Source: Haloferax volcanii DS2
Lineage (GTDB): Archaea; Halobacteriota; Halobacteria; Halobacteriales; Haloferacaceae
Assembly: GCF_000025685.1 (NCBI RefSeq)
Contig: NC_013966.1
Location: 600,001 to 632,000, forward strand
Length of the DNA stretch: 32,000 nucleotides
Reading direction: 5' to 3'
Shown here: in pieces, positions 914 through 31,291 of the stretch
Layout: each line of letters begins with the position of its first letter
Position numbering within the stretch: position 1 is the stretch's first letter
Program-made: the position numbers and the translations under genes
Notes under the pieces: generated by a model
Seen by the model: only the letters and a program-made list of their open reading frames with translations
Told to the model about the DNA's origin: nothing
The model's database searches: none

Positions 914-1564
914 TCAGAGGTCGAGGCGGTCCTTGTACGACTCCATCGCGGTGACGGCCATGAGCGTCGCGGTGCTCAACACGGCCCAGCCGGCGGCCGG
1001 GACCTGTTCGAGTCCGGGGACGCCGAGCAGTCCGCCGGAGACGGTCGCGGCCACGCCGGCGGCGATAGCGAGGTTCCGCTTGGGCGACGCGGCGAGCGAC
1101 GCCGACTGCTCGTCGTCGGCGTCGGTGCTGACGATGTCGCCGTCGAGGTACTGGTCGAGCTGTTTCGCGGTGTCGAGAAGCGTGATGTCACCGCGGTTCT
1201 TCTCGAAGTCGACGATGCCCGCCGAGTCCATCTTCGGCAGGTGACACTGGTACAGACCGATGTACACGCGCTTGCGTTGGCTCGACGACAGCGCCTTTAT
1301 CTCGATGCCGTTTTCCTTCGCGGCGATGAACTCGGCCATGTCGCCGAGCTTCGCTTCGCCGTCGTTTTCCTTGAGGTACCGGAGCGCGTCGCGCCGGCGC
1401 TGGTTCTTCAGAATCTCGAAGACGATATCCTTCGAGAGCGCTTCGATTTCGGGTTGTTGCTGCTGTGCTGCGGCCGCGTGAGACCCACCAGTCGTCTCCG
1501 CGAGTCGTTCGTTCGCCGTCTGGTCAACAACGTCGGTGTCGGCTTGCAGTGAATCGGTAACCAT
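914..1564 (-). CDS. membrane-anchored winged-HTH protein (haloarchaeal ArsR-like HTH family), paralog 1
   Basis: Part of ORF 914..1654. I prefer the internal start MVTDSLQ at c1564, which is preceded by GGAGG. The core ILKNQRRRDALRYL...RVYIGLYQCHLPKMDSAGIVDF matches the paralog at 2036-2569. The C-terminus has two hydrophobic segments (LAIAAGVAATVSGGLLGV and AAGWAVLSTATLMAVTAM). Confidence 0.8.
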   Translation of the reverse strand: MVTDSLQADTDVVDQTANERLAETTGGSHAAAAQQQQPEIEALSKDIVFEILKNQRRRDALRYLKENDGEAKLGDMAEFIAAKENGIEIKALSSSQRKRVYIGLYQCHLPKMDSAGIVDFEKNRGDITLLDTAKQLDQYLDGDIVSTDADDEQSASLAASPKRNLAIAAGVAATVSGGLLGVPGLEQVPAAGWAVLSTATLMAVTAMESYKDRLDL

Positions 1565-1654
1565 TGTTCCTTCCTCCCCCACTGTGTAGTCGGGTGCTAC
1601 CGTGTGTCGTGGTCGGTCGAGAGGGGGTGACCACGAGACGTTAGCACAGACCAC

Positions 1655-2035
1655 AACCTTTGGATGCGCCCCACCAAGCGCGCCCCAGATACAGAGGGTC
1701 AGTGAACTAATAGGTTAAACGAGCATATATACTTGTCTGACAATCCCACACTCTGATTTCTCCGACTGTTAGGGTTCAAAATCTGCAAGTAAAGTGGTTG
1801 TAACAATCTATACCAACTCAGACTTTCAATACATCCAACAGTAATAGAATCCGACCAGAAGACGACCGCGTATCCCGTTTTTGGATGGCGAGCGTCGTTT
1901 CTAGATGAGGAAATAGATTCGTACTGTCAGTTAGTCACACGAGCACGACGGTTCGGCAGTAGCATCGACTGAGAATACGTGTGCGGTTGGCGACGGCCCT
2001 CTCGGGAGCCGCGACAAGACAGGTTTATTCGACGG
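1655..2035. other. conspicuously AT-rich, ORF-free spacer between the two wHTH paralogs
   Basis: Base composition is visibly AT-rich compared with the flanks (for example taataggttaaacgagcatatatacttgtctgacaatccc). The track shows no ORF of 60 aa or more here. The spacer must contain the paralog-1 promoter and the paralog-2 terminator. Confidence 0.7.
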
Positions 2036-2569
2036 TTATTCCACGAGCGCCTCGAAGGCGTCGGCCGAAGTTCCCCCGTTCCGTTCCGAGAGATAGTGCG
2101 CGAGCACCAACACGAGGAGCGCCGCGGAGACGAACACCGCGACGGCGCTCCACGAGACGAGCGCGAATCCGGGGAGCCCCGCCCACAGACCGAGAATGAG
2201 CGCCCAACTGAGCGCGCCGAGCAGCGCGTAGTACCGACTCCACGACTCGCTCACGCCGGACTGCATCCAGAAGAACCCCCGCTTGGCGACGTTCGGAACG
2301 AGTTCGACAGAGCGCTCCTCCTCGTCGTAATCGACCAGACCGGCGCTCTCGAGTTTCGGGAGATGCGTCTGGTACAGCGAGATATACACGCGCTGTCGCT
2401 CTTCGTCGGTCACGTCTTCGATCGCCGTTCCGTTCTCCCGAGCAGCGACCATCGCTGCGAGTTCCTTCAGCGAAATCGCCTCGCCCGCCCGATGGAGGAA
2501 GTGGAGAATCTGCCTCCGCCGGGAGTTGCTGAGGATGCGGAATAGCTCGTCTTTTGATAGTGTTGTCAT
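2036..2569 (-). CDS. membrane-anchored winged-HTH protein, paralog 2
   Basis: The 177-aa ORF reads MTTLSKDELFRILSNSRRRQILHFL...RVYISLYQTHLPKLESAGLVDYD. Two or three hydrophobic helices follow (YYALLGALSWALILGLWAGLPGFALVSWSAVAVFVSAALLVLVLAHYL). Confidence 0.85.
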   Translation of the reverse strand: MTTLSKDELFRILSNSRRRQILHFLHRAGEAISLKELAAMVAARENGTAIEDVTDEERQRVYISLYQTHLPKLESAGLVDYDEEERSVELVPNVAKRGFFWMQSGVSESWSRYYALLGALSWALILGLWAGLPGFALVSWSAVAVFVSAALLVLVLAHYLSERNGGTSADAFEALVE

Positions 2570-2916
2570 CGTCGTGTGCGGGGGTGGTCCCGCACGCGGT
2601 GCGAAAGGGGGACCCGACCCGGTTGGGTCGTACTACACCACACCCGACCTTTGTTATCGTGACGTTTCCGGGAGGCACCGAGTCGGTCCCTCCCGCGTAT
2701 TAAGCTCATCTTCACGCGATTGTTATCGGGGCGCAGACCGTCAGCGAGAGGGAGTAATTGCGGTCTCAGAGACGAGTACACACCTCGCGGATTCAGAGAA
2801 AAAACCTCGCGCCGAAACGGGAGCAAACTCGCGACAACGGCGGTAAGGAACCCAATTGTCCAGTATAGAGGTGGCTAACAATACCCGATGGCGGCGATAC
2901 TTAGATTCGAGACTAC

Positions 2917-3195
2917 ATGTTCGAACTGACTGGCTTCCAGCGCGACCTGCTGTACGTGATCGCCGGCGCAGAGCGCCCGTCCGGGCAGGAGATTAAAGAG
3001 ATGATCAGCAAGGACGTCGGGGAGGTGAATCACGGTCGGCTCTACCCGAACCTCGACGCCCTCGTCGAACAGGGGTACGTCAACAAGGGACAACACGACC
3101 GTCGGACGAACTTCTACGAGATGTCCGAGAAAGGACGCGAGTCCATCGTCCAACGCCGAGACTGGGAAAACCGACGCGTCGGGTTCCTCGGATAG
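2917..3195 (+). CDS. PadR family transcriptional regulator
   Basis: The 92-aa ORF contains GQEIKEMISKDVGEVNHGRLYPNLDALVEQGYV, the typical PadR wHTH signature (G-x-EI ... G-x-LYP-x-L-x-x-L-x-x-G). Confidence 0.85.
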   Translation: MFELTGFQRDLLYVIAGAERPSGQEIKEMISKDVGEVNHGRLYPNLDALVEQGYVNKGQHDRRTNFYEMSEKGRESIVQRRDWENRRVGFLG

Positions 3196-3786
3196 CGCAC
3201 GCTCGTAGACAGAAGAACCGTCCGTTCGAGCGCCCGTGGGCGCGAGTGGGACGCTCGCCCCGGAAGAAACCGAAGACGAGAACGGCTCGTCGCTGGTGGC
3301 CGTATCGGTCCTCGCGGTCTCGTTTGGCCCCCACCTCCTTTCGCCGCCGGTTCGACTCGAGCGACCGCACCGAGCGCTGACTCCGTCCGACCGCACCGAA
3401 CCCACACCGAGCGCGACCGCATCCGACGATGCTCGACGCCGAGCCGCCCCGGCCGACCCGACCGGAGTCTGAGCGGAGAACGAGACGTGGCGCGGCGTGA
3501 TATCCGCGGGCAGCGGACTGCGGTGCACCGCACCGAGTGTTCGTGTCAGAAGTTAGTACACTCAGGGAGCGCCAAAAATATCAGAACTCGGATAGTCGAA
3601 TCGGCGTCCCGAATCCGGGATTAATGCAGCCATAAGAAACGGATTAATTCGAGAATAAAAGAGCGCAGTCAAGCGTTTTCGTCCCTCGAACGAATCGACA
3701 GGACTTGTCGTCAAATCGAACAGTAACACCGCCAATAATATCATCGATAGACATTCATGTATTCCTACTAATATAATTATCGCAAC

Positions 3787-3794
3787 ATTTATGG
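3787..3794 (+). promoter_or_regulatory. TATA-like box for the (near) leaderless gene starting at 3818
   Basis: The sequence atttatgg lies about 25-30 nt upstream of the ATG at 3818, inside an AT-rich islet. Confidence 0.4.
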
Positions 3795-3817
3795 ATGTAA
3801 TCCGCAACCCCTGAGAC

Positions 3818-4237
3818 ATGGTAAGAGAACGGTCCACCGGGCAGGACCCAGAGACGACGACTGACGACGACGTCGGTAGACGCAAATACCTCGCGCTGTG
3901 CGGGTCGGTATCGGCCGCCGGCGCGCTCGCGGGCTTCTCTGGGCTCGGCTCGGCGACGGAACAGACAGGCGAGTCGGCCGACGGCGACGGGCACACGCTC
4001 GTCGTCGCCGGCACCGGCTCCGTCTCGTCGTTCGAAGTGACGGTCAGCGGGTCCATCTCACCGCTCCAGTCGAACGGCGCGCTCAGCACGACCGGAACGG
4101 TCGGGCCCGCCGCCGAGGGAACCGTCAGCGACGACTCGCGGCGCTACCAGTTCGCGGGCGACATCACCGACTTCCGGTCGACCGACGCGGTGTCGGTCTA
4201 CGTCGACGGCGTCCGCGTCCCCGAACACTCCTTCTGA
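3818..4237 (+). CDS. Tat-secreted small protein of unknown function
   Basis: The 139-aa ORF has a twin-arginine signal (GRRKYLALCGSVSAAGALAGFSGLGSA). The mature part is acidic and rich in Ser/Thr/Gly/Val, suggesting a beta-rich fold. A TATA-like box lies upstream. Confidence 0.7.
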   Translation: MVRERSTGQDPETTTDDDVGRRKYLALCGSVSAAGALAGFSGLGSATEQTGESADGDGHTLVVAGTGSVSSFEVTVSGSISPLQSNGALSTTGTVGPAAEGTVSDDSRRYQFAGDITDFRSTDAVSVYVDGVRVPEHSF

Positions 4238-6527: not shown

Positions 6528-6842
6528 TCACTGGAGGGGCTGGGAGTCGCCGATGGGGACCACTTCGATAGAACCGAGCGCGTCGAGCGTCACGCGGTAG
6601 CCCGCGTAAGAAAACGAGAGAATCGCGTCTTCGGAACAGCCGAACACCGTTTCGAGGGCGTCGGGGTCGATAGTCCGTGCGAGCGGCGGAAGCTGCGTGG
6701 GGCGGACGCCCTCGATTGCCGCAATACTCAATACAACGTTCGTGCTGAGGAGTTCGGAAGAATCGCGGTCGACCCGGTATGAGCCGGTCGACTCGTCGTA
6801 CGTCACGCGCGAGTCCTTCCAGTCGTTCGTCTGTGCCATCAT
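6528..6842 (-). CDS. HalOD1 (halobacterial output domain 1) protein
   Basis: The 104-aa ORF contains LSTNVVLSIAAIEGVRPTQLPPLARTIDPDALETVF...SFSYAGYRVTLDALGSIEVV, the characteristic HalOD1 pattern. Confidence 0.8.
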   Translation of the reverse strand: MMAQTNDWKDSRVTYDESTGSYRVDRDSSELLSTNVVLSIAAIEGVRPTQLPPLARTIDPDALETVFGCSEDAILSFSYAGYRVTLDALGSIEVVPIGDSQPLQ

Positions 6843-7018
6843 GGGTGCCTTAACAGGCGTCTGTGTGCGACGGTGACCCTTAAATCCATGCTATTTGTGA
6901 ACAGTTGTAATTCGTGACTGTCACGGAATCGAACGGATACAGGAGTGGTACTCGACGCGGGGAATCTGGTGCCGAGCATACACAATCAAAAACCATGATA
7001 GTTTTGCGGTGACGACGG

Positions 7019-7666
7019 TCAGCCCTGTCGGGCACGAAGGGTTTGGACGGTGTCTTGCGCCTCTTCGACCGTGATTTCGCGCTTGTAGAGCGCCGAGCCG
7101 GGCTCCAGCAGTTCGCCGCCGGAGACGAGACCGCCGACGTCGACGGGGCCGAATCCGATGTCACGGATGAGGCCGGCGACGCGCGCTTTGGCGTCCGAGT
7201 CGTCACCGGCGAGGAAGACCGCGAGGCGCTCGGATTCGGGGAGGTCCGGGTGGCCGAGGTCCCGGAGCGTCTCCCAGTGGATGGTGTTGAACGACTTGAC
7301 CAGCCTCGCGTCCGGGAGTTGAGACGCGACGAGCTCCGAGGAGGTGTCGTCGCCGAGGTCGATGACGTGGAAGTTCTCCGTGTAGGGGTTCATCGCGTCG
7401 ACCACGATTTTCTCCGCGAACCGGGCCGCGTCGGGCAGCGAGTCGCGCTCGCGGAACGGAATCGCGAGAAAGACCACGTCACCGAACCGAACGGCTTGCT
7501 TCGGTTCCACCGGGCGCAGTTGCGGGCCGAGCGTCTCCGAGAGGTCTTCGAGCGACTCGACTCCGCTGTCGTTGGCTATCGCCACCTCGTGGTTCGACTC
7601 CACCAAAAGCTGGGCCAACGTCCCACCGAGTCGACCAGCACCGAGGATTCCTATATCCATGAACAA
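7019..7666 (-). CDS. NADP-dependent oxidoreductase, F420-oxidoreductase/COG2085-like dinucleotide-binding enzyme
   Basis: The 215-aa ORF has a Rossmann motif (IGILGAGRLGGTLA). It also carries VVFLAIPF, KIVVDAMNPY, LVKSFNTI and FLAGDDSDAKARVAGLIRDIGFGPVDVGGL. Confidence 0.8.
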   Translation of the reverse strand: MFMDIGILGAGRLGGTLAQLLVESNHEVAIANDSGVESLEDLSETLGPQLRPVEPKQAVRFGDVVFLAIPFRERDSLPDAARFAEKIVVDAMNPYTENFHVIDLGDDTSSELVASQLPDARLVKSFNTIHWETLRDLGHPDLPESERLAVFLAGDDSDAKARVAGLIRDIGFGPVDVGGLVSGGELLEPGSALYKREITVEEAQDTVQTLRARQG

Positions 7667-23930: not shown

Positions 23931-23948
23931 ACTCGGCAGTAGTCAGGG

Positions 23949-23969
23949 ACAGGTTAATAATTCACCTGT
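23949..23969 (-). promoter_or_regulatory. 21-bp near-palindrome overlapping the putative TATA box of the P-type ATPase gene
   Basis: The sequence is ACAGGTtaataattcACCTGT, with perfect 6-bp arms. The TTATTAA core lies about 25-31 nt upstream of the ATG at c23930. Confidence 0.5.
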
Positions 23970-24025
23970 TAGAAAACGGGGTTTAGATATTGTAACTTCA
24001 CAAATTGAAGCCAGTTAGTTAATAA

Positions 24026-25435
24026 TCAGAGGAACGGCGGGTTCGCGGTCGGCAGCGAGATGAGCCACAGGCTGAGAATCGTGTAGAGAATCATCACCGC
24101 GACGAAGGGGAACTGGCTCCGGACGGCTTGCAGTCTGCTGGGGAAGGTTCGGTAGGCCTGCGAGTGCGCCACCCACACCGCGAGCAGGTGGCCGAGGAGG
24201 ACGAACGCGACGTTCAGGCCGCCGAACCACGCGGGGAGCGTGAGCACGACCGGGTTCGCCGGCGACGACAGCGGCGACGACAACGCGTGGACGAGCATCG
24301 GTGACAGCGAGACGAAGAAGCCGACGTAGTGCGCGAGGTGGTAGCCCGCGGCGATAGCGAGCAACGAGGGCGCGAATGTGACCGCGAGGTCGAGCGGCGT
24401 CTCGAAGGTGTCGATGCGGCGGGCGGTCACCCGCGCGGCGAGGACGTAGAGACCGAGGAAGACCCCGAAGCCGCCGAGGTAGAGCAGTCCGTAGACGAAA
24501 AGCGGCGGGAGGCCGACGCCCGCGAGCCACCGGACGGCCGCCGCGCCCTGTTCGGTCGTGACGAAACCGCTGAAGGTGAGTTCCCAGACGAGGACGACCG
24601 CGACGGCCACGTCACCGAGGTCGGTCAGGTCGTCGTCGGTGACGAGTCGCATCCCCGGCAGGCGGAACGAGAGGCCGTCGTCGTCGAGGCGAACCGGCGC
24701 GACCCGGCCGTAGAACTGGAGGAAGACGGAGACGGGGTCGACCTTGTCGAACCACGCGTCCGCGCCGACGGCGACCGCGCCGGCGAGCGTGACGACCGAG
24801 TAGGCGACGAGCGCGGTCGCGAGGACCGAGGGCCGGGTCGTGACGGCGGTCGCGGTCTCGACCCAGACGAGCGCGAGAATCCCCGCGACCGCGGGCCAGC
24901 GGCCGAGTCGCTCGGGGTACGAGACGAAGCCGTTCGGAACCGCCGAGACGAGGGTCCGCCACGGGTTCAGCGCGCGCCACGTATCAGCGACGAGATACGA
25001 GAGCATCGTGTAGCCGGCGCGGAGCCCCGCGAAGACGACGATGACGGCGAAGTTGACGGTCGGGACCTGCGGGCCGGTGTAGCCGAGGGAGACCGCGAGC
25101 GCGAGGACCGCGAGGCCGAGGACGCCGCCCGCGACTCGGAGCGCGCGCAGGAGTCCGTCCGAGACGCCCGCATCGGGACCGGTCTGCCACAGGTGGACGC
25201 GCTCGATGAATCGGCGGTCGGTGACGAAACTGGCGAGGAGCGCGGAGGCTCCGACGGTCGCGCCGCCGGTGGCGAGATAGAGCCACCGCGGGACCGCGAG
25301 GTTGTCCTGCGACGCGCCCGCGAGTCCGACCGCGGCGTTGCTCGCGGCCGCCGGGTCCGCGAGGAGCGACAGAAGACTCGCCAGCAGGAGACCGAGACCG
25401 AATCGTCTGAGGGAGATGGGTCGGAGTCGGGTCAT
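24026..25435 (-). CDS. polytopic membrane protein of unknown function (469 aa, about 12 hydrophobic segments)
   Basis: The start is MTRLRPISLRRFGLGLLLASLL at c25435, overlapping the stop of the upstream zinc-finger gene (ATGA). His-containing TM segments include AGYHLAHYVGFF and LGHLLAVWVAHSQ. Confidence 0.8.
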   Translation of the reverse strand: MTRLRPISLRRFGLGLLLASLLSLLADPAAASNAAVGLAGASQDNLAVPRWLYLATGGATVGASALLASFVTDRRFIERVHLWQTGPDAGVSDGLLRALRVAGGVLGLAVLALAVSLGYTGPQVPTVNFAVIVVFAGLRAGYTMLSYLVADTWRALNPWRTLVSAVPNGFVSYPERLGRWPAVAGILALVWVETATAVTTRPSVLATALVAYSVVTLAGAVAVGADAWFDKVDPVSVFLQFYGRVAPVRLDDDGLSFRLPGMRLVTDDDLTDLGDVAVAVVLVWELTFSGFVTTEQGAAAVRWLAGVGLPPLFVYGLLYLGGFGVFLGLYVLAARVTARRIDTFETPLDLAVTFAPSLLAIAAGYHLAHYVGFFVSLSPMLVHALSSPLSSPANPVVLTLPAWFGGLNVAFVLLGHLLAVWVAHSQAYRTFPSRLQAVRSQFPFVAVMILYTILSLWLISLPTANPPFL

Positions 25436-25689
25436 GATGCGAAGACGATGAACAGCATGAGGAAGCCGAAGTACAGCAGCACGATGACGCCGAGCGCACG
25501 GACGCGGAACGACTTGAGTTCCGCTTCCTCCTCGTGGTACGCCTCGCGGTACGCCTCGACTTCTTCGTCGTCGAGGTCGTCGGGGTGTCTCGCACCCCGG
25601 TGGAGGACCAGTAGTCGCTCGGTCGGGTACGCCTCGCCGCACGCTGTGCAGGTGTGGCGGTCGCGCGTCGCGTCTGTGTCCGTGGTCAT
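25432..25689 (-). CDS. membrane-anchored C2H2-type zinc-finger micro-protein (85 aa)
   Basis: It reads MTTDTDATRDRHTCTACGEAYPTERLLVLHRGARHP, giving C-x2-C-x12-H-x4-H. An acidic linker and a C-terminal TM (ALGVIVLLYFGFLMLFIVFA) follow. The longer track start at c25737 runs through lower-GC sequence. Confidence 0.7.
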   Translation of the reverse strand: MTTDTDATRDRHTCTACGEAYPTERLLVLHRGARHPDDLDDEEVEAYREAYHEEEAELKSFRVRALGVIVLLYFGFLMLFIVFAS

Positions 25690-25802
25690 CCGAGAGTCAC
25701 CGAGAGTTCGGGGTTGTTGGCTTCTGAACGTTTCCATCGCGCCGTCCGCGTCGGGGTGCCCGGGTCGCCCGACGGGGGGTGAGGCGGCGACAAAGCGACA
25801 CC

Positions 25803-26867
25803 TCAGACCTCGAACCGCATCGGCTCGAACGCCATGAACGCCGTCTCGTAGCCGTCGTGGCGGGCGACCTGCGGCGGCACGTCAACCGAGAGCGTCAGCG
25901 TATCGCCGGATTCGACGCCCTCGACGCCCGTGCCGTAGTGGTAGCTGAGGTCGGGGTCGAGCGTCCGGGCGAGTCGCGCGCCGTCGAGGGTCGTCGTCCC
26001 GTCGCGTTCGAGCGTGGCCCGAACGCCCATCATCGGCAGGACGAACTCGTTGTGCGGCGTCCGCGCCGAGACGTAGAGGTACGCACCGTCGACGCCGAAG
26101 CGGGAGCCGTCGTCGACGACGAAGGCGTCGAACAGGGCGTCGGCGCTCGTCTGCCGGCCGAGGTGGCGACCGGGGAGGTCGCTGACGGCGGGGGCTTTGC
26201 CGGTCGGAACGCCCATCATCTCCATCGCCGGGACCGCGCCGCGCGACCCGGCCTCGTCGCCGAGGCGGCGCAGTTCCACGTCGTAGAGGTCGTCCGTGTC
26301 GAACGCGAACTCGAACGTCGCCGTCTCGGCCGACTCGAACCGCCCGGCGAACGAGCCGGTTCGGGAAAGCGAGGTGCCGCCGACGTGCACGCGGGCCTCG
26401 TAGTCGCCCTCGCCGTCGAGGACGTAGTTCGAGCCGTAGTGCATCCCCATCTGCTGGGAGAGCATCGGGTAGGCGACCTCCTCGCTCACGAGGTCGCCGT
26501 CGCGGAGAATCTCGATGGAGACGCCGGCGTCCAGCGGGAGGACGGTCCCCGTCTCGGCGTCCCACAGCGACGCCATGAGGTGAATCGAGTCGTCGGCCTC
26601 GACGACGGTCTTCCCGAGGTCGGAGCCGGCGGCGGTCCAGAAGCGATGAGGGTACGAGTAGGTGAGCGCGACGCCGTACGGGCCGGCGGTCGTCTTCCCG
26701 TACATCTTCATCCCTTCGGTGACGGCGGGGAGGTAGACCGCGTCCGGGCGGTCGTCGACGAGCGGCGGGTCGCGCCACGCCGACTGCTGTTCGAAGCCGC
26801 CGAGACAGCCCGCGGTGGCGGCGAGTGCGCCGATGCCGAGTGTCTTGAGTGCGTCTCGTCGTTTCAT
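25803..26867 (-). CDS. Tat lipoprotein with two tandem FetP/P19/Tp34-like periplasmic metal-binding modules
   Basis: The signal is MKRRDALKTLGIGALAATAGC. Module 1 reads IHLMASLWDAETG...AYPMLSQQMGMHYGSNYVLDGEGDYEARVHV. Module 2 reads FVLPMMGVRATL...LSYHYGTGV. A Met-rich string (AMEMMGVP) is also present. Confidence 0.65.
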   Translation of the reverse strand: MKRRDALKTLGIGALAATAGCLGGFEQQSAWRDPPLVDDRPDAVYLPAVTEGMKMYGKTTAGPYGVALTYSYPHRFWTAAGSDLGKTVVEADDSIHLMASLWDAETGTVLPLDAGVSIEILRDGDLVSEEVAYPMLSQQMGMHYGSNYVLDGEGDYEARVHVGGTSLSRTGSFAGRFESAETATFEFAFDTDDLYDVELRRLGDEAGSRGAVPAMEMMGVPTGKAPAVSDLPGRHLGRQTSADALFDAFVVDDGSRFGVDGAYLYVSARTPHNEFVLPMMGVRATLERDGTTTLDGARLARTLDPDLSYHYGTGVEGVESGDTLTLSVDVPPQVARHDGYETAFMAFEPMRFEV

Positions 26868-29758: not shown

Positions 29759-30180
29759 GCCGTTTTCCCGACGTTTTCGACCGCCCCCGCGTTTCGAGTC
29801 GCGTGAGCGACGCGTATGGGACGCGCGCCGCGGCCGACACCCTCCCGAACCCACACCACCATGTCCGCAGAAATCGGGAGCGCAGCAGTTCGAGCGAGTG
29901 CGTCGCGCGAGCGGGAGAGTCGGATTCGCGTGTGTAGCGCGTCAGGTCGGCGGTTCAGCACCGACCTCCCCTGCGGATGGTACGCAGGTGGGATGGAACA
30001 GCTTAAATCCCGAATTCGACGGTTAGGAGCGCCCTAACCCCTCGAATAGACCGGTAAGTCGCTGCGAAATTAAATATATCCGGAACATACGGAAGGCCAA
30101 CAGGAGCCGGAACATGTGGCCGCTCGCGGTCCCGTGCAGGTGGGCACGAGGTGGGTCAGAGGCCGGTCCTGGGTAGAACA

Positions 30181-30612
30181 ATGGATATCAAGAAATTCCT
30201 TAGCGAATCACGCGCAGTCTCGCCGGTCATCGGCGTCATCCTCATGGTCGCGATTACCGTCATCCTCGCGGCCGTCATCGGAACCTTCGTCCTCGGTCTC
30301 GGTGACCAGGTCGGTGACACCGCCCCGCAGGCGAGTTTCAGCTTCGACTACGACGGTGCACAGGAAATCACGATCACGCACGAGAGTGGTGATTCCATCG
30401 CCAGCGACGAGCTGAGCGTCGTCATCCCGTCGGGCCTAACCGCGGATACTGTGTCGAAGAAGACCGGCTCCGACGACAGCATGAACGCCGGTGACACCAT
30501 CGTCGTTGAACTTGCAGCCGGCGACGAACTTGAGGACGGCGACCAAGTGCGCCTCGTCTGGACCTCCGAATCCGGTTCCAACTCCGCGACCCTGCAAACG
30601 TACACGCACTAA
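30181..30612 (+). CDS. pilA: archaeal type IV pilin (class III signal peptide, DUF1628/PilA-like)
   Basis: It reads [43 protein letters not shown]. This is the conserved pilin H-domain known from Haloferax PilA1-6. Confidence 0.9.
30211..30281 (+). repeat. 71-nt block identical to 30881-30951 (pilin H-domain coding repeat, copy 1)
   Basis: By direct comparison, cgcgcagtctcgccggtcatcggcgtcatcctcatggtcgcgattaccgtcatcctcgcggccgtcatcgg is identical in both genes. Confidence 0.9.
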
Positions 30613-30850
30613 ACGGTCCGCGGCGACACAGTCAACCGAACCTCGATTTTTTCGAACGTTACACCGTGAGCGACAGCACCAGCCGATTCTGGTACGAATC
30701 ACGCATGAGACGTGAAACGCCTTCTCAATACTAGTTTATATCATCGGAGAACGTCAGACAATCTGTTAGGTTAGAACGCAGGCGTTCGAGGACCGATTCG
30801 TATTTTTCTCAACGGTCGCCTCTCGTCCGGCACACCTAGGAGAAACAACT

Positions 30851-31291
30851 ATGCAAATCAAGACAATGTTCACGGAGTCCCGCGCAGTCTCGCCGGTCAT
30901 CGGCGTCATCCTCATGGTCGCGATTACCGTCATCCTCGCGGCCGTCATCGGCACCTTCGTTCTCGGTCTCGGCGACCAGGTCGGTGACACCGCTCCCCAA
31001 GCGAGTTTCACGTTCGACTACGACGGAACGGAACTGACCATCACGCACGAAAGCGGCGCGCAGATTGACGGCGATTTAGTCACTATCGCTGGCGATGTCA
31101 ACGTCACCGATTCGAGTGACGCAAACAAGTGGTCGACCCTCGGCTCAGACACCATCAGCGCGGGTGAGTCCGTCGTCGTCCAAGACACTGACGAGGACGG
31201 CTTTGCCAACGGCGACACAGTCCGCGTCGTCTGGACCTCCGAATCCGGCTCCAACTCCGCGACGCTCCAGCGGTGGACCTACAACGCCTGA
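30851..31291 (+). CDS. pilA: archaeal type IV pilin paralog
   Basis: It reads [43 protein letters not shown]... It shares the C-terminal VR(L/V)[14 protein letters not shown] with the first pilin. The alternative start is M6 at 30866. Confidence 0.9.
   Translation: MQIKTMFTESRAVSPVIGVILMVAITVILAAVIGTFVLGLGDQVGDTAPQASFTFDYDGTELTITHESGAQIDGDLVTIAGDVNVTDSSDANKWSTLGSDTISAGESVVVQDTDEDGFANGDTVRVVWTSESGSNSATLQRWTYNA
30881..30951 (+). repeat. 71-nt block identical to 30211-30281 (copy 2)
   Basis: Same evidence as for copy 1. Confidence 0.9.

Follow-up and report, generated by a model that had tools for sequence, protein, structure and literature searches.

The 32,000-nucleotide stretch of Haloferax volcanii DS2 DNA analyzed here (positions 600,001 to 632,000 of contig NC_013966.1, hereafter termed the window) carries on its minus strand three genes that an initial annotation, made from the sequence alone, had proposed as an undescribed metal-handling system. 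Reading the open reading frames (ORFs) from the sequence confirmed their arrangement. In order, the genes encode a lipoprotein of 354 residues (26867-25803), a tail-anchored C2H2 micro-protein of 85 residues, termed here the finger protein (25689-25432), and a polytopic membrane protein of 469 residues (25435-24026). After an AT-rich gap of 95 bp they are followed, on the same strand, by an ATPase of 895 residues with two HMA domains, which is of the Zn/Cd (P1B-2) type according to TIGR01512 and its motifs (23930-21243). As noted in the initial annotation, the TGA of the finger gene shares the tetranucleotide ATGA (25435-25432) with the ATG of the membrane-protein gene, and overlap or tight spacing of these two genes recurs in orthologous loci. 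The same four-gene order is called in a public H. volcanii assembly. Because each of the three genes has hundreds of homologues, and because their order is repeated in many genomes, we regard them as real genes rather than chance ORFs. The start of the finger gene was assigned by comparison with orthologues: the longest ORF begins at 25737 and encodes 101 residues, whereas the orthologues begin at MTTD, which gives 85.

Residues 1-21 of the lipoprotein (KRRDALK...TAGC; 26805-26867) comprise a twin-arginine signal peptide with a lipobox. As expected for a lipoprotein exported by the twin-arginine translocation (Tat) system, the arginine pair lies at residues 3-4 and the lipobox AGC at residues 19-21, with G20 and C21 invariant in an alignment of 50 homologues; the score with TIGR01409 was sub-threshold (13.7 versus 16.7). 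The remainder consists of an N-terminal module (approximately residues 36-205; 26253-26762), a linker (26172-26252) and a C-terminal module (residues 233-354; 25806-26171). The protein matched Pfam DUF7350 (PF24041) in two stretches with a score of 178 bits (cut-off 27; E = 8.5e-53), and matched PF10634 (Iron_transport, "Fe2+ transport protein") marginally, with 22.4 bits against a cut-off of 21, over residues 116-165 only. When a profile of the 50 homologues was compared with the PDB, it matched FtrA (8vv5, E = 2.6e-6) and FetP (3nrp, E = 0.006), as well as P19, the P19-like HftA and Tp34. An AlphaFold2 (AF2) model of the protein had a predicted local distance difference test score (pLDDT) of 89.2 and a predicted template-modeling score (pTM) of 0.85, and when it was searched against the PDB with Foldseek the top 36 matches were all P19, FetP, FtrA, Tp34 or HftA structures, with a probability of 1.0 and target-normalized template-modeling scores of 0.57-0.67. 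The relationship with P19 and FetP that had originally been proposed from motifs is thus borne out.

Homology between the two modules was shown by hhalign (probability 95%, E = 6e-9), so that the tandem architecture suggested in the initial annotation stands. However, only the N-terminal module has the full motif series on which it was based (H-L-x-A...P-M...G-x-H-Y-G-x-N); its C-terminal counterpart is degenerate. The profile of the C-terminal module alone gave no sequence match in the PDB, and we dropped it as an independent P19 match; its homology to P19 rests on the hhalign alignment with the N-terminal module.

As the reference for mapping metal ligands, we used the genuine Escherichia coli FetP gene of plasmid pUM146, to which the profile of the N-terminal module aligned with E = 6e-6. 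The equivalent residues were H96 and H44, M98 and E46, M135 and M90, M140 and the Asp of DGPH, and H143 and H97 (lipoprotein and FetP, respectively). H74, H96-L-M98, M135, M140 and H143-Y-G-x-N147 are invariant in the N-terminal module. The mapped positions are those mutated in PDB entries for FetP (E46Q, M90I) and P19 (E44Q, M88I, D92H), and FtrA H151A is likewise among the entries of P19-family mutants. Dimers of the P19 family complete each copper site with a fourth ligand from the partner subunit, the His of a G-R-H-x-D-x-E-T motif; the FtrA H151A entry is consistent with this. The N-terminal module lacks this "RH" His, having S-R-T-G instead, and the His-Met-His triad is kept only there. 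The C-terminal module, which contains the DUF7350 core and an invariant PPQxARH337DGYET, keeps A-R-H-D-G-Y-E-T, whereas two residues of the triad are gone: Tyr stands in place of the first His and Thr in place of the Met. In the alignment, ARHDGYET corresponds to HRHTDSET of FetP, which holds the inter-subunit His, and H337 would be the equivalent of that His. Such reciprocal decay is as expected if a two-site homodimer had been fused into one chain keeping a single site. We predict that the lipoprotein, with two homologous modules in one 354-residue chain rather than a single domain of ~160 residues forming a homodimer, is a single-chain P19 pseudo-dimer with one composite Met/His site of the copper type.

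The acidic residues of the iron site, i.e., the Glu of HLE and the Asp of DGPH, are not retained in the lipoprotein, which has M98 and M140, both invariant, at these positions; overall, the three acids of HLEAD...DGPH in FetP and P19 are invariantly Met, Ser and Met in this family. The motifs H-L-M, PMxSxxMGxH and ARH[DE]GYET were kept in all distinct haloarchaeal DUF7350 motif variants examined, including those of paralogues. The linker carries a conserved Met motif, P-x-M-E/D-M(-M), which here reads AVPAMEMMGVP, with M215 and M217 conserved in at least 90% of sequences. Both of the Met strings that had first hinted at copper (AMEMMGVP and PMMGV) are present in the lipoprotein, and that hint is strengthened by the replacement of the acidic iron-site residues with invariant Met; the chemistry of the putative site points to copper. 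In two loci (L057:2037-3116 and L069:9367-10497) the MEMM of the linker is replaced by a long insertion rich in His, Gly and Asp, e.g., MDHfghaegghgspgghadqdhdvgggH, which would be a metal-scavenging tail of another kind in place of the Met motif.

These results bear on a serious rival explanation, i.e., that the three genes mediate oxidase-dependent iron uptake. The membrane protein would then be a non-homologous stand-in for Ftr1, EfeU, FetM or FtrC, and copper bound by the lipoprotein would serve as its cofactor in handling Fe(II)/Fe(III), as in P19, FetP and FtrA. The PF10634 score is above threshold, and NCBI names the lipoprotein family "iron transporter" or "Fe2+ transport protein", both of which favor iron, but the invariant Met, Ser and Met in place of the three acids argue against it, and on balance we consider iron uptake less likely than copper import, although it is the main rival. 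We conclude that the lipoprotein has a P19 fold but lacks three traits that define the family: the acids of the iron site, assembly as a homodimer and an Ftr1 partner. With regard to the last of these, no Ftr1-family permease was seen in a neighborhood census of 80 loci, described below.

The membrane protein had been thought to have 12 transmembrane helices. Instead, the secondary structure of the AF2 model (pLDDT 91.2, pTM 0.88), hydropathy and the positive-inside rule together indicated a signal peptide or anchor followed by ten helices, with the mature N-terminus and the C-terminus both predicted to lie outside, and residues 150-180 and 224-272 in cytoplasmic loops. Pfam and NCBIfam searches with this protein and 79 diverse relatives yielded no match, except for a TPR extension on one relative, and neither the family profile (by sequence) nor the model (by Foldseek; best E = 0.017, template-modeling score 0.18) matched anything in the PDB. 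Matches to Ftr1 (PF03239), CopD (PF05425) and Caa3_CtaG (PF09678) were absent at E values up to 1 for the window protein and up to 0.01 for the 79 relatives. The absence of REXXE motifs reported in the initial annotation was confirmed, and there is no ExxE motif either. The protein therefore lies outside known families, as had been proposed, and belongs to an uncatalogued one that has no Pfam, NCBIfam or PDB relative. There are at least 899 close homologues, all labelled "hypothetical", and the wider family comprises 1,793 clusters at 50% identity (E ≤ 1e-3) in Bacteria and Archaea. An internal duplication was looked for by hhalign of the two halves and by self-alignment; neither revealed one.

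W228, H369 and H416 are invariant in the membrane-protein family, and E193, Y212, D289, Y365, H424 and M448 are at least 90% conserved. In the predicted topology the outer ends of helices hold E193 and D289, the middle of the membrane H369, H416, M448 and Y212, and the side nearer the cytoplasm H366, H424 and Y365. That the conserved residues within the membrane are His and Met and not carboxylates is, like the lack of REXXE or ExxE, a further point against iron uptake. In ~90% of the family the signal peptide ends in A-x-A followed by His, a possible histidine-brace position; in CopC and YcnI the same arrangement gives an N-terminal histidine. In the window protein and in close relatives of it this position reads A-S-N instead, Ser32 being the putative mature N-terminus of the window protein.

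Might the membrane protein be no transporter at all but a membrane-embedded metalloenzyme, acting as a hydrolase or oxidoreductase? The membrane copper enzymes PmoB/PmoC bind copper through a His cluster and an N-terminal His, which would be compatible with this idea. In addition, UniRef calls one homologue (P0076, from Halomarina halobia) "Fenitrothion hydrolase", after FedA, which exists as an annotated Burkholderia gene. However, that name is an unverified automatic transfer, and the gene neighborhoods give no sign of organophosphate or other catabolism. We therefore consider an enzymatic function highly improbable.

The finger protein has the C-x2-C-x12-H-x4-H motif and C-terminal transmembrane helix originally ascribed to it: the motif is formed by C14, C17, H30 and H35 (residues 14-35; 25585-25650), and the hydrophobic helix spans approximately residues 63-83 (25441-25503). 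About 60 distinct orthologues share the pattern C-x2-C-x3-[FY]-x5-L-x2-H-x4-H (in the window protein, CTACGEAYPTERLLVLHRGARH), together with an acidic helix (EAYREAY..EE), a basic juxtamembrane segment (FR[IL][RK]A) and the C-terminal transmembrane helix. The basic residues preceding this helix place the finger in the cytoplasm, by inference. The classical C2H2 pattern, C-x2-4-C-x12-H-x3-5-H with conserved hydrophobic positions, is present, although Pfam gave no zf-C2H2 match at E values up to 1. The only similarity was a weak one to DUF7410 (13.6 bits versus a cut-off of 27.5), and the precomputed annotation of one orthologue also lists DUF7410, marked as weak. Fusions of the finger to the membrane protein were sought in 269 homologues, and none was found.

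NCBI labels the finger protein "DNA-binding protein", which raises the possibility that the three proteins form a transmembrane metal sensor, with the membrane protein and the lipoprotein controlling the C2H2 protein as a releasable or membrane-bound transcription regulator. Apart from its name, the classical consensus with its conserved aromatic and Leu positions would fit such a role, as would the strict adjacency of its gene to that of the membrane protein and the presence of a divergently oriented gene for a PAS histidine kinase adjoining the Haloferax locus. However, the only finger leads into a strongly acidic helix, and the N-terminal segment is not basic, so that the protein appears poorly suited to sequence-specific DNA binding; the membrane anchor also makes the NCBI label doubtful. 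Moreover, no protease or release signal is evident, and bacterial relatives of the membrane protein lack the finger and have periplasmic partners instead. A sensor is thus quite improbable in our estimation, and the finger protein is probably a subunit of a membrane complex rather than a DNA-binding factor.

To establish how often the genes occur together, we scanned genomes for the membrane protein, using narrower alignments because the broad alignment (A2) was too divergent to serve as a query. The best 80 of 456 loci were analyzed, all from Halobacteria, and 70 were left when near-identical copies had been removed. The finger gene adjoined the membrane-protein gene in 55 of these 70 loci (upstream, or downstream in one clade) and a DUF7350 lipoprotein gene lay within 2 kb of it in 49; both were present in 34 loci, and at none of the 70 was there neither. 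The co-occurrence of the three genes, on which the idea of a common system depended, is therefore well supported. Less frequent neighbors were a P1B ATPase within 3.5 kb (19/70), a cytochrome-oxidase subunit III-like gene (11/70) and a DyP-like gene (10/70). In Halobellus, the finger and membrane-protein genes form a pair among housekeeping genes, with the lipoprotein encoded elsewhere.

Within Halobacteria, the lipoprotein gene was linked in 48 of 58 loci whose membrane protein had lost the N-terminal His, but in only 1 of 12 whose membrane protein retained it (Fisher's p = 1.7e-6, uncorrected for phylogeny). Because the His-lost membrane proteins are the lipoprotein-linked ones, this distribution suggests that the lipoprotein may replace a built-in extracellular metal site that was lost with the N-terminal His.

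The haloarchaeal neighbors of the module include a multicopper oxidase and a plastocyanin-type copper protein. Both are found in a metal island of ~15 kb that is near-identical in at least six genera (Haloarcula, Halobaculum, Halorussus, Natronomonas, Halosegnis and Haloparvum), its near-identity indicating recent horizontal spread (copies L048 and L050-L055, also L044-L047 and L049; annotated copy L089). The island encodes a CDF protein, DUF7996, a P1B ATPase, DUF7541, the finger protein, the membrane protein, two P19-like lipoprotein paralogues, a DyP-like protein, a DtxR-family regulator, the multicopper oxidase and the plastocyanin-type (halocyanin-like) protein.

Two other types of gene recur beside these modules. 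The first encodes a small protein with three transmembrane helices (Pfam DUF7471) and a conserved HHxxEHGLD, usually accompanied by a winged-helix regulator (e.g., L090:324-671; L053:13958-14296, with an adjacent helix-turn-helix gene of 172 codons; L093:9739-10613); such a pair may consist of a metal sensor in the membrane and the regulator belonging to it. The second comprises stand-alone genes resembling cytochrome-c-oxidase subunit III, which adjoin the pair encoding the membrane and finger proteins (L072, L073, L075, L076, L078 (e.g., 6778-7635), L080, L081 and L083), mostly in the clade that retains the N-terminal His (L083 lacks this His). This hints at a link to the biogenesis of haem-copper oxidases.

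Bacterial relatives of the membrane protein were examined in 80 metagenomic loci (L095-L174), 68 of which had an upstream neighbor. Immediately upstream in 31 of the 68 was a tightly linked gene for a secreted, His-rich, cysteine-free, cupredoxin-like protein of ~130 residues (e.g., L123:1972-2367) with the consensus LHLHGYD...GRFxxxxH...(His-rich)...EVxP, which itself seems to be uncharacterized. One relative was translationally coupled to a CopC-CopD fusion, and single relatives adjoined PCuAC, a ZIP transporter or CobW. The conserved core is thus the membrane protein plus a small partner, the latter being its own N-terminal His, a cupredoxin-like protein or a P19-like lipoprotein. In ten of the loci, a gene for a secreted beta-propeller of ~390 residues lies two genes upstream on the opposite strand (L097:2350-3528 and nine similar loci). 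The propeller weakly resembles SBP56, whose family includes a copper-dependent methanethiol oxidase.

Taken together, the partners of the membrane-protein family (P19-like, cupredoxin-like and DyP/EfeB-like proteins, multicopper oxidase and DtxR-family regulator) are those of an Ftr1-type set, and the overlap in accessories with FetMP, FtrABCD and EfeUOB is striking. Together with a ferritin-like gene close to one Halococcus locus, this favors iron uptake, although siderophore or iron-regulon genes are absent from the window locus.

The initial annotation had placed the three genes directly upstream of a Zn/Cd ATPase. The position and type of the ATPase are correct: it has a CPC motif in a transmembrane helix, K...GDAG (K...DxG), DKTGT and two HMA domains with CASC, and it scores 498 bits with TIGR01512 (cut-off 313.5). 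The copper model TIGR01511 passes as well (430 versus 397), so that the assignment of Zn/Cd specificity rests on the motifs. It does not, however, appear to belong to the same unit. The gap upstream (23931-24025) contains an AT-rich promoter- or operator-like element, TAACAGGTGnATTATTAAC (23953-23971, minus strand), which lies 5' of the ATPase start codon and is conserved when the corresponding gaps of eight Haloferax species are aligned. Two copies of the octamer TTATTAAC are present in the gap, one of them at 24018-24025, and there is a short inverted repeat, ACAGGT...ACCTGT. This layout resembles a TATA box combined with an operator through which a metal-responsive regulator might control the ATPase, TAACAGGTGnATTATTAAC being the putative promoter. 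Given this conserved element, the ATPase is probably a separate transcription unit from the three genes, which are taken to be co-transcribed; since the rate of linkage is also low, we rejected a strict four-gene operon. The linkage is lineage-specific, the ATPase being directly downstream in all Haloferax loci, and it appears to be a neighbor rather than a member of the module.

The same evidence bears on the possibility that the three genes are an accessory to metal resistance, acting with the Zn/Cd ATPase, or elsewhere the CDF protein, to sequester or export Cu, Zn or Cd, the lipoprotein being an extracellular sink. The constant position of the ATPase in Haloferax would fit, as would the island, where the trio lies beside an ATPase, a CDF protein, a multicopper oxidase and a copper protein in a layout like that of cop/pco operons. 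However, an ATPase is near the membrane-protein gene in only 19 of the 70 loci, many of the loci are surrounded by housekeeping genes, GatD for instance, and the ATPase has its own conserved promoter-like element. In addition, an archaeon with a single membrane hardly needs an extracellular binding protein for metal export, and CopC/CopD are thought to import copper despite their location in resistance operons. For these reasons, a role in resistance seems rather improbable.

The window itself is high-GC haloarchaeal DNA, whose proteins are 99% identical to records of the Haloferax volcanii group and which is 99.2% identical to a 297-kb plasmid of Haloferax alexandrinus. Large plasmids of H. 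mediterranei, H. gibbonsii and H. larsenii carry orthologous loci; among the H. volcanii records of the plasmid collection searched, none did. Searches of the window yielded no Rfam match, no tRNA, no terminator-like site and no meaningful DNA repeat. The GC content drops to 0.58-0.61 at 1001-4000 and 30001-31000, compared with ~0.69 elsewhere; the latter segment corresponds to type IV pilin-like genes (Pilin_N) in an orthologous annotated locus.

From what was observed, namely the folds, the substitutions in the motifs, the linked genes and the lack of known relatives, we infer a metal, import as the direction of its transport, a physical complex and a role for the finger. Our favored reading, to which we assign a probability of roughly 0.42, is that the trio is a module for the capture and import of copper, analogous to CopC/CopD (YcnJ/YcnI) and built from non-homologous parts. 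It is the best supported because an extracytoplasmic His/Met donor, a ladder of His and Met residues in the membrane, a cytoplasmic Cys2His2 site and copper-linked neighbors are all accounted for. The Tat-exported lipoprotein would sit on the outer face of the membrane as a P19 pseudo-dimer, its composite site formed, according to the alignment, by H96, M135 and H143 of the N-terminal module and H337 of the C-terminal module. M98 and M140 take the place of the iron-binding Glu and Asp, the Met-rich linker would lie nearby, and such a His/Met site would fit Cu(I)/Cu(II) and not Fe(III). The metal would then be passed to the ten-helix protein, where what looks like a permease pathway may lead from E193/D289 at the outer surface via H369/H416/M448/Y212 in mid-membrane to H366/H424/Y365 on the cytoplasmic side. 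There, the Cys2His2 site of the finger protein, whose translation is coupled to that of the permease, may act as metal acceptor or as feedback sensor.

Several points weigh against copper import. Characterized P19-family systems take up iron, "iron transporter" is the NCBI name for the lipoprotein family, and in the island one lipoprotein paralogue is coupled to a DyP/EfeB-like protein with a DtxR-family regulator adjoining, an iron-like context. Fe(II), Mn, Zn or Cd could equally be the cargo of His, Met, Glu and Asp ligands, and the putative composite site and ligand ladder are derived from alignment and predicted topology rather than from coordinates. The Fisher test on loss of the N-terminal His ignores phylogeny, the His-retaining loci representing one or two clades, and the matches of the bacterial ~130-residue protein to Cupredoxin_1 were below threshold in all cases tried (~22 bits versus 27). 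Copper import also leaves the adjacency of a Zn/Cd exporter in Haloferax unexplained. Finally, literature searches turned up nothing on this system. In that sense it is undescribed, as first proposed, although its lipoprotein family is already catalogued, as DUF7350, albeit uncharacterized, and its function is deduced.

A broader proposal, which we put forward a shade more tentatively than copper import by the trio, is that the 469-residue protein founds an unrecognized family of transition-metal permeases served by interchangeable donors, i.e., its own N-terminal His, the bacterial His-rich cupredoxin-like protein or the haloarchaeal Met-substituted P19 pseudo-dimer. The haloarchaeal finger protein would be the acceptor or gate, and the family might represent the missing copper importer of haloarchaea and many bacteria. 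Haloarchaea use copper in halocyanins, haem-copper oxidases, laccase and the denitrification enzymes NirK and NosZ, yet we know of no established route for copper acquisition in archaea, and import by CopD-type proteins in bacteria is still debated. The locus offers a widespread new membrane-protein family with a confident model and candidate ligand residues. A single-chain, one-site version of P19 without the iron ligands could help to separate the copper role from the iron role of this fold, and a classical C2H2 finger as a subunit of a membrane complex would be a rare case in prokaryotes. If the substrate were iron, the membrane protein would represent a fourth type of permease for oxidase-dependent uptake. 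The names "iron transporter", "DNA-binding protein" and "fenitrothion hydrolase" for the lipoprotein, the finger protein and the membrane protein are probably mis-annotations.

Among known systems, the closest to the lipoprotein are P19, FetP, FtrA, Tp34 and HftA (PF10634), with which it has in common the fold, the His-Met-His triad, PMxxxxGxHYGxN, a fourth His from a second P19 unit, an extracytoplasmic location and a gene next to one for a polytopic membrane protein. However, those proteins are homodimers, whereas the lipoprotein is a tandem fusion in which one of two sites is left and the iron-binding Glu and Asp have become Met, and it is lipid-anchored and Tat-exported. The permeases of the P19 family (cFtr1, FetM and FtrC) are unrelated to the membrane protein, which has neither PF03239 nor REXXE and which is accompanied by an additional zinc-finger subunit. 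The CopC/CopD and YcnJ/YcnI systems (YobA-YebZ of E. coli, YcnJ of Bacillus subtilis) likewise combine an extracytoplasmic beta-sandwich protein bearing His and Met with a polytopic, His-bearing membrane protein, and CopC and YcnI have an N-terminal His after signal cleavage, as do most relatives of the membrane protein. Nevertheless, CopC (PF04234) and CopD (PF05425) have no detectable sequence similarity to the module, which differs in fold, with ten transmembrane helices and a P19-fold binding protein. The accessories of EfeUOB and FtrABCD are matched in related loci by the cupredoxin-like protein (bacterial) and by the DyP/EfeB-like protein and multicopper oxidase (haloarchaeal island), but the permease is neither EfeU nor FtrC, and the window locus lacks an M75 (EfeO/EfeM) domain and a polyferredoxin. 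With classical C2H2 fingers and DUF7410, the finger protein shares the ligand pattern; what sets it apart is that its only finger precedes an acidic helix in a tail-anchored membrane protein of 85 residues.

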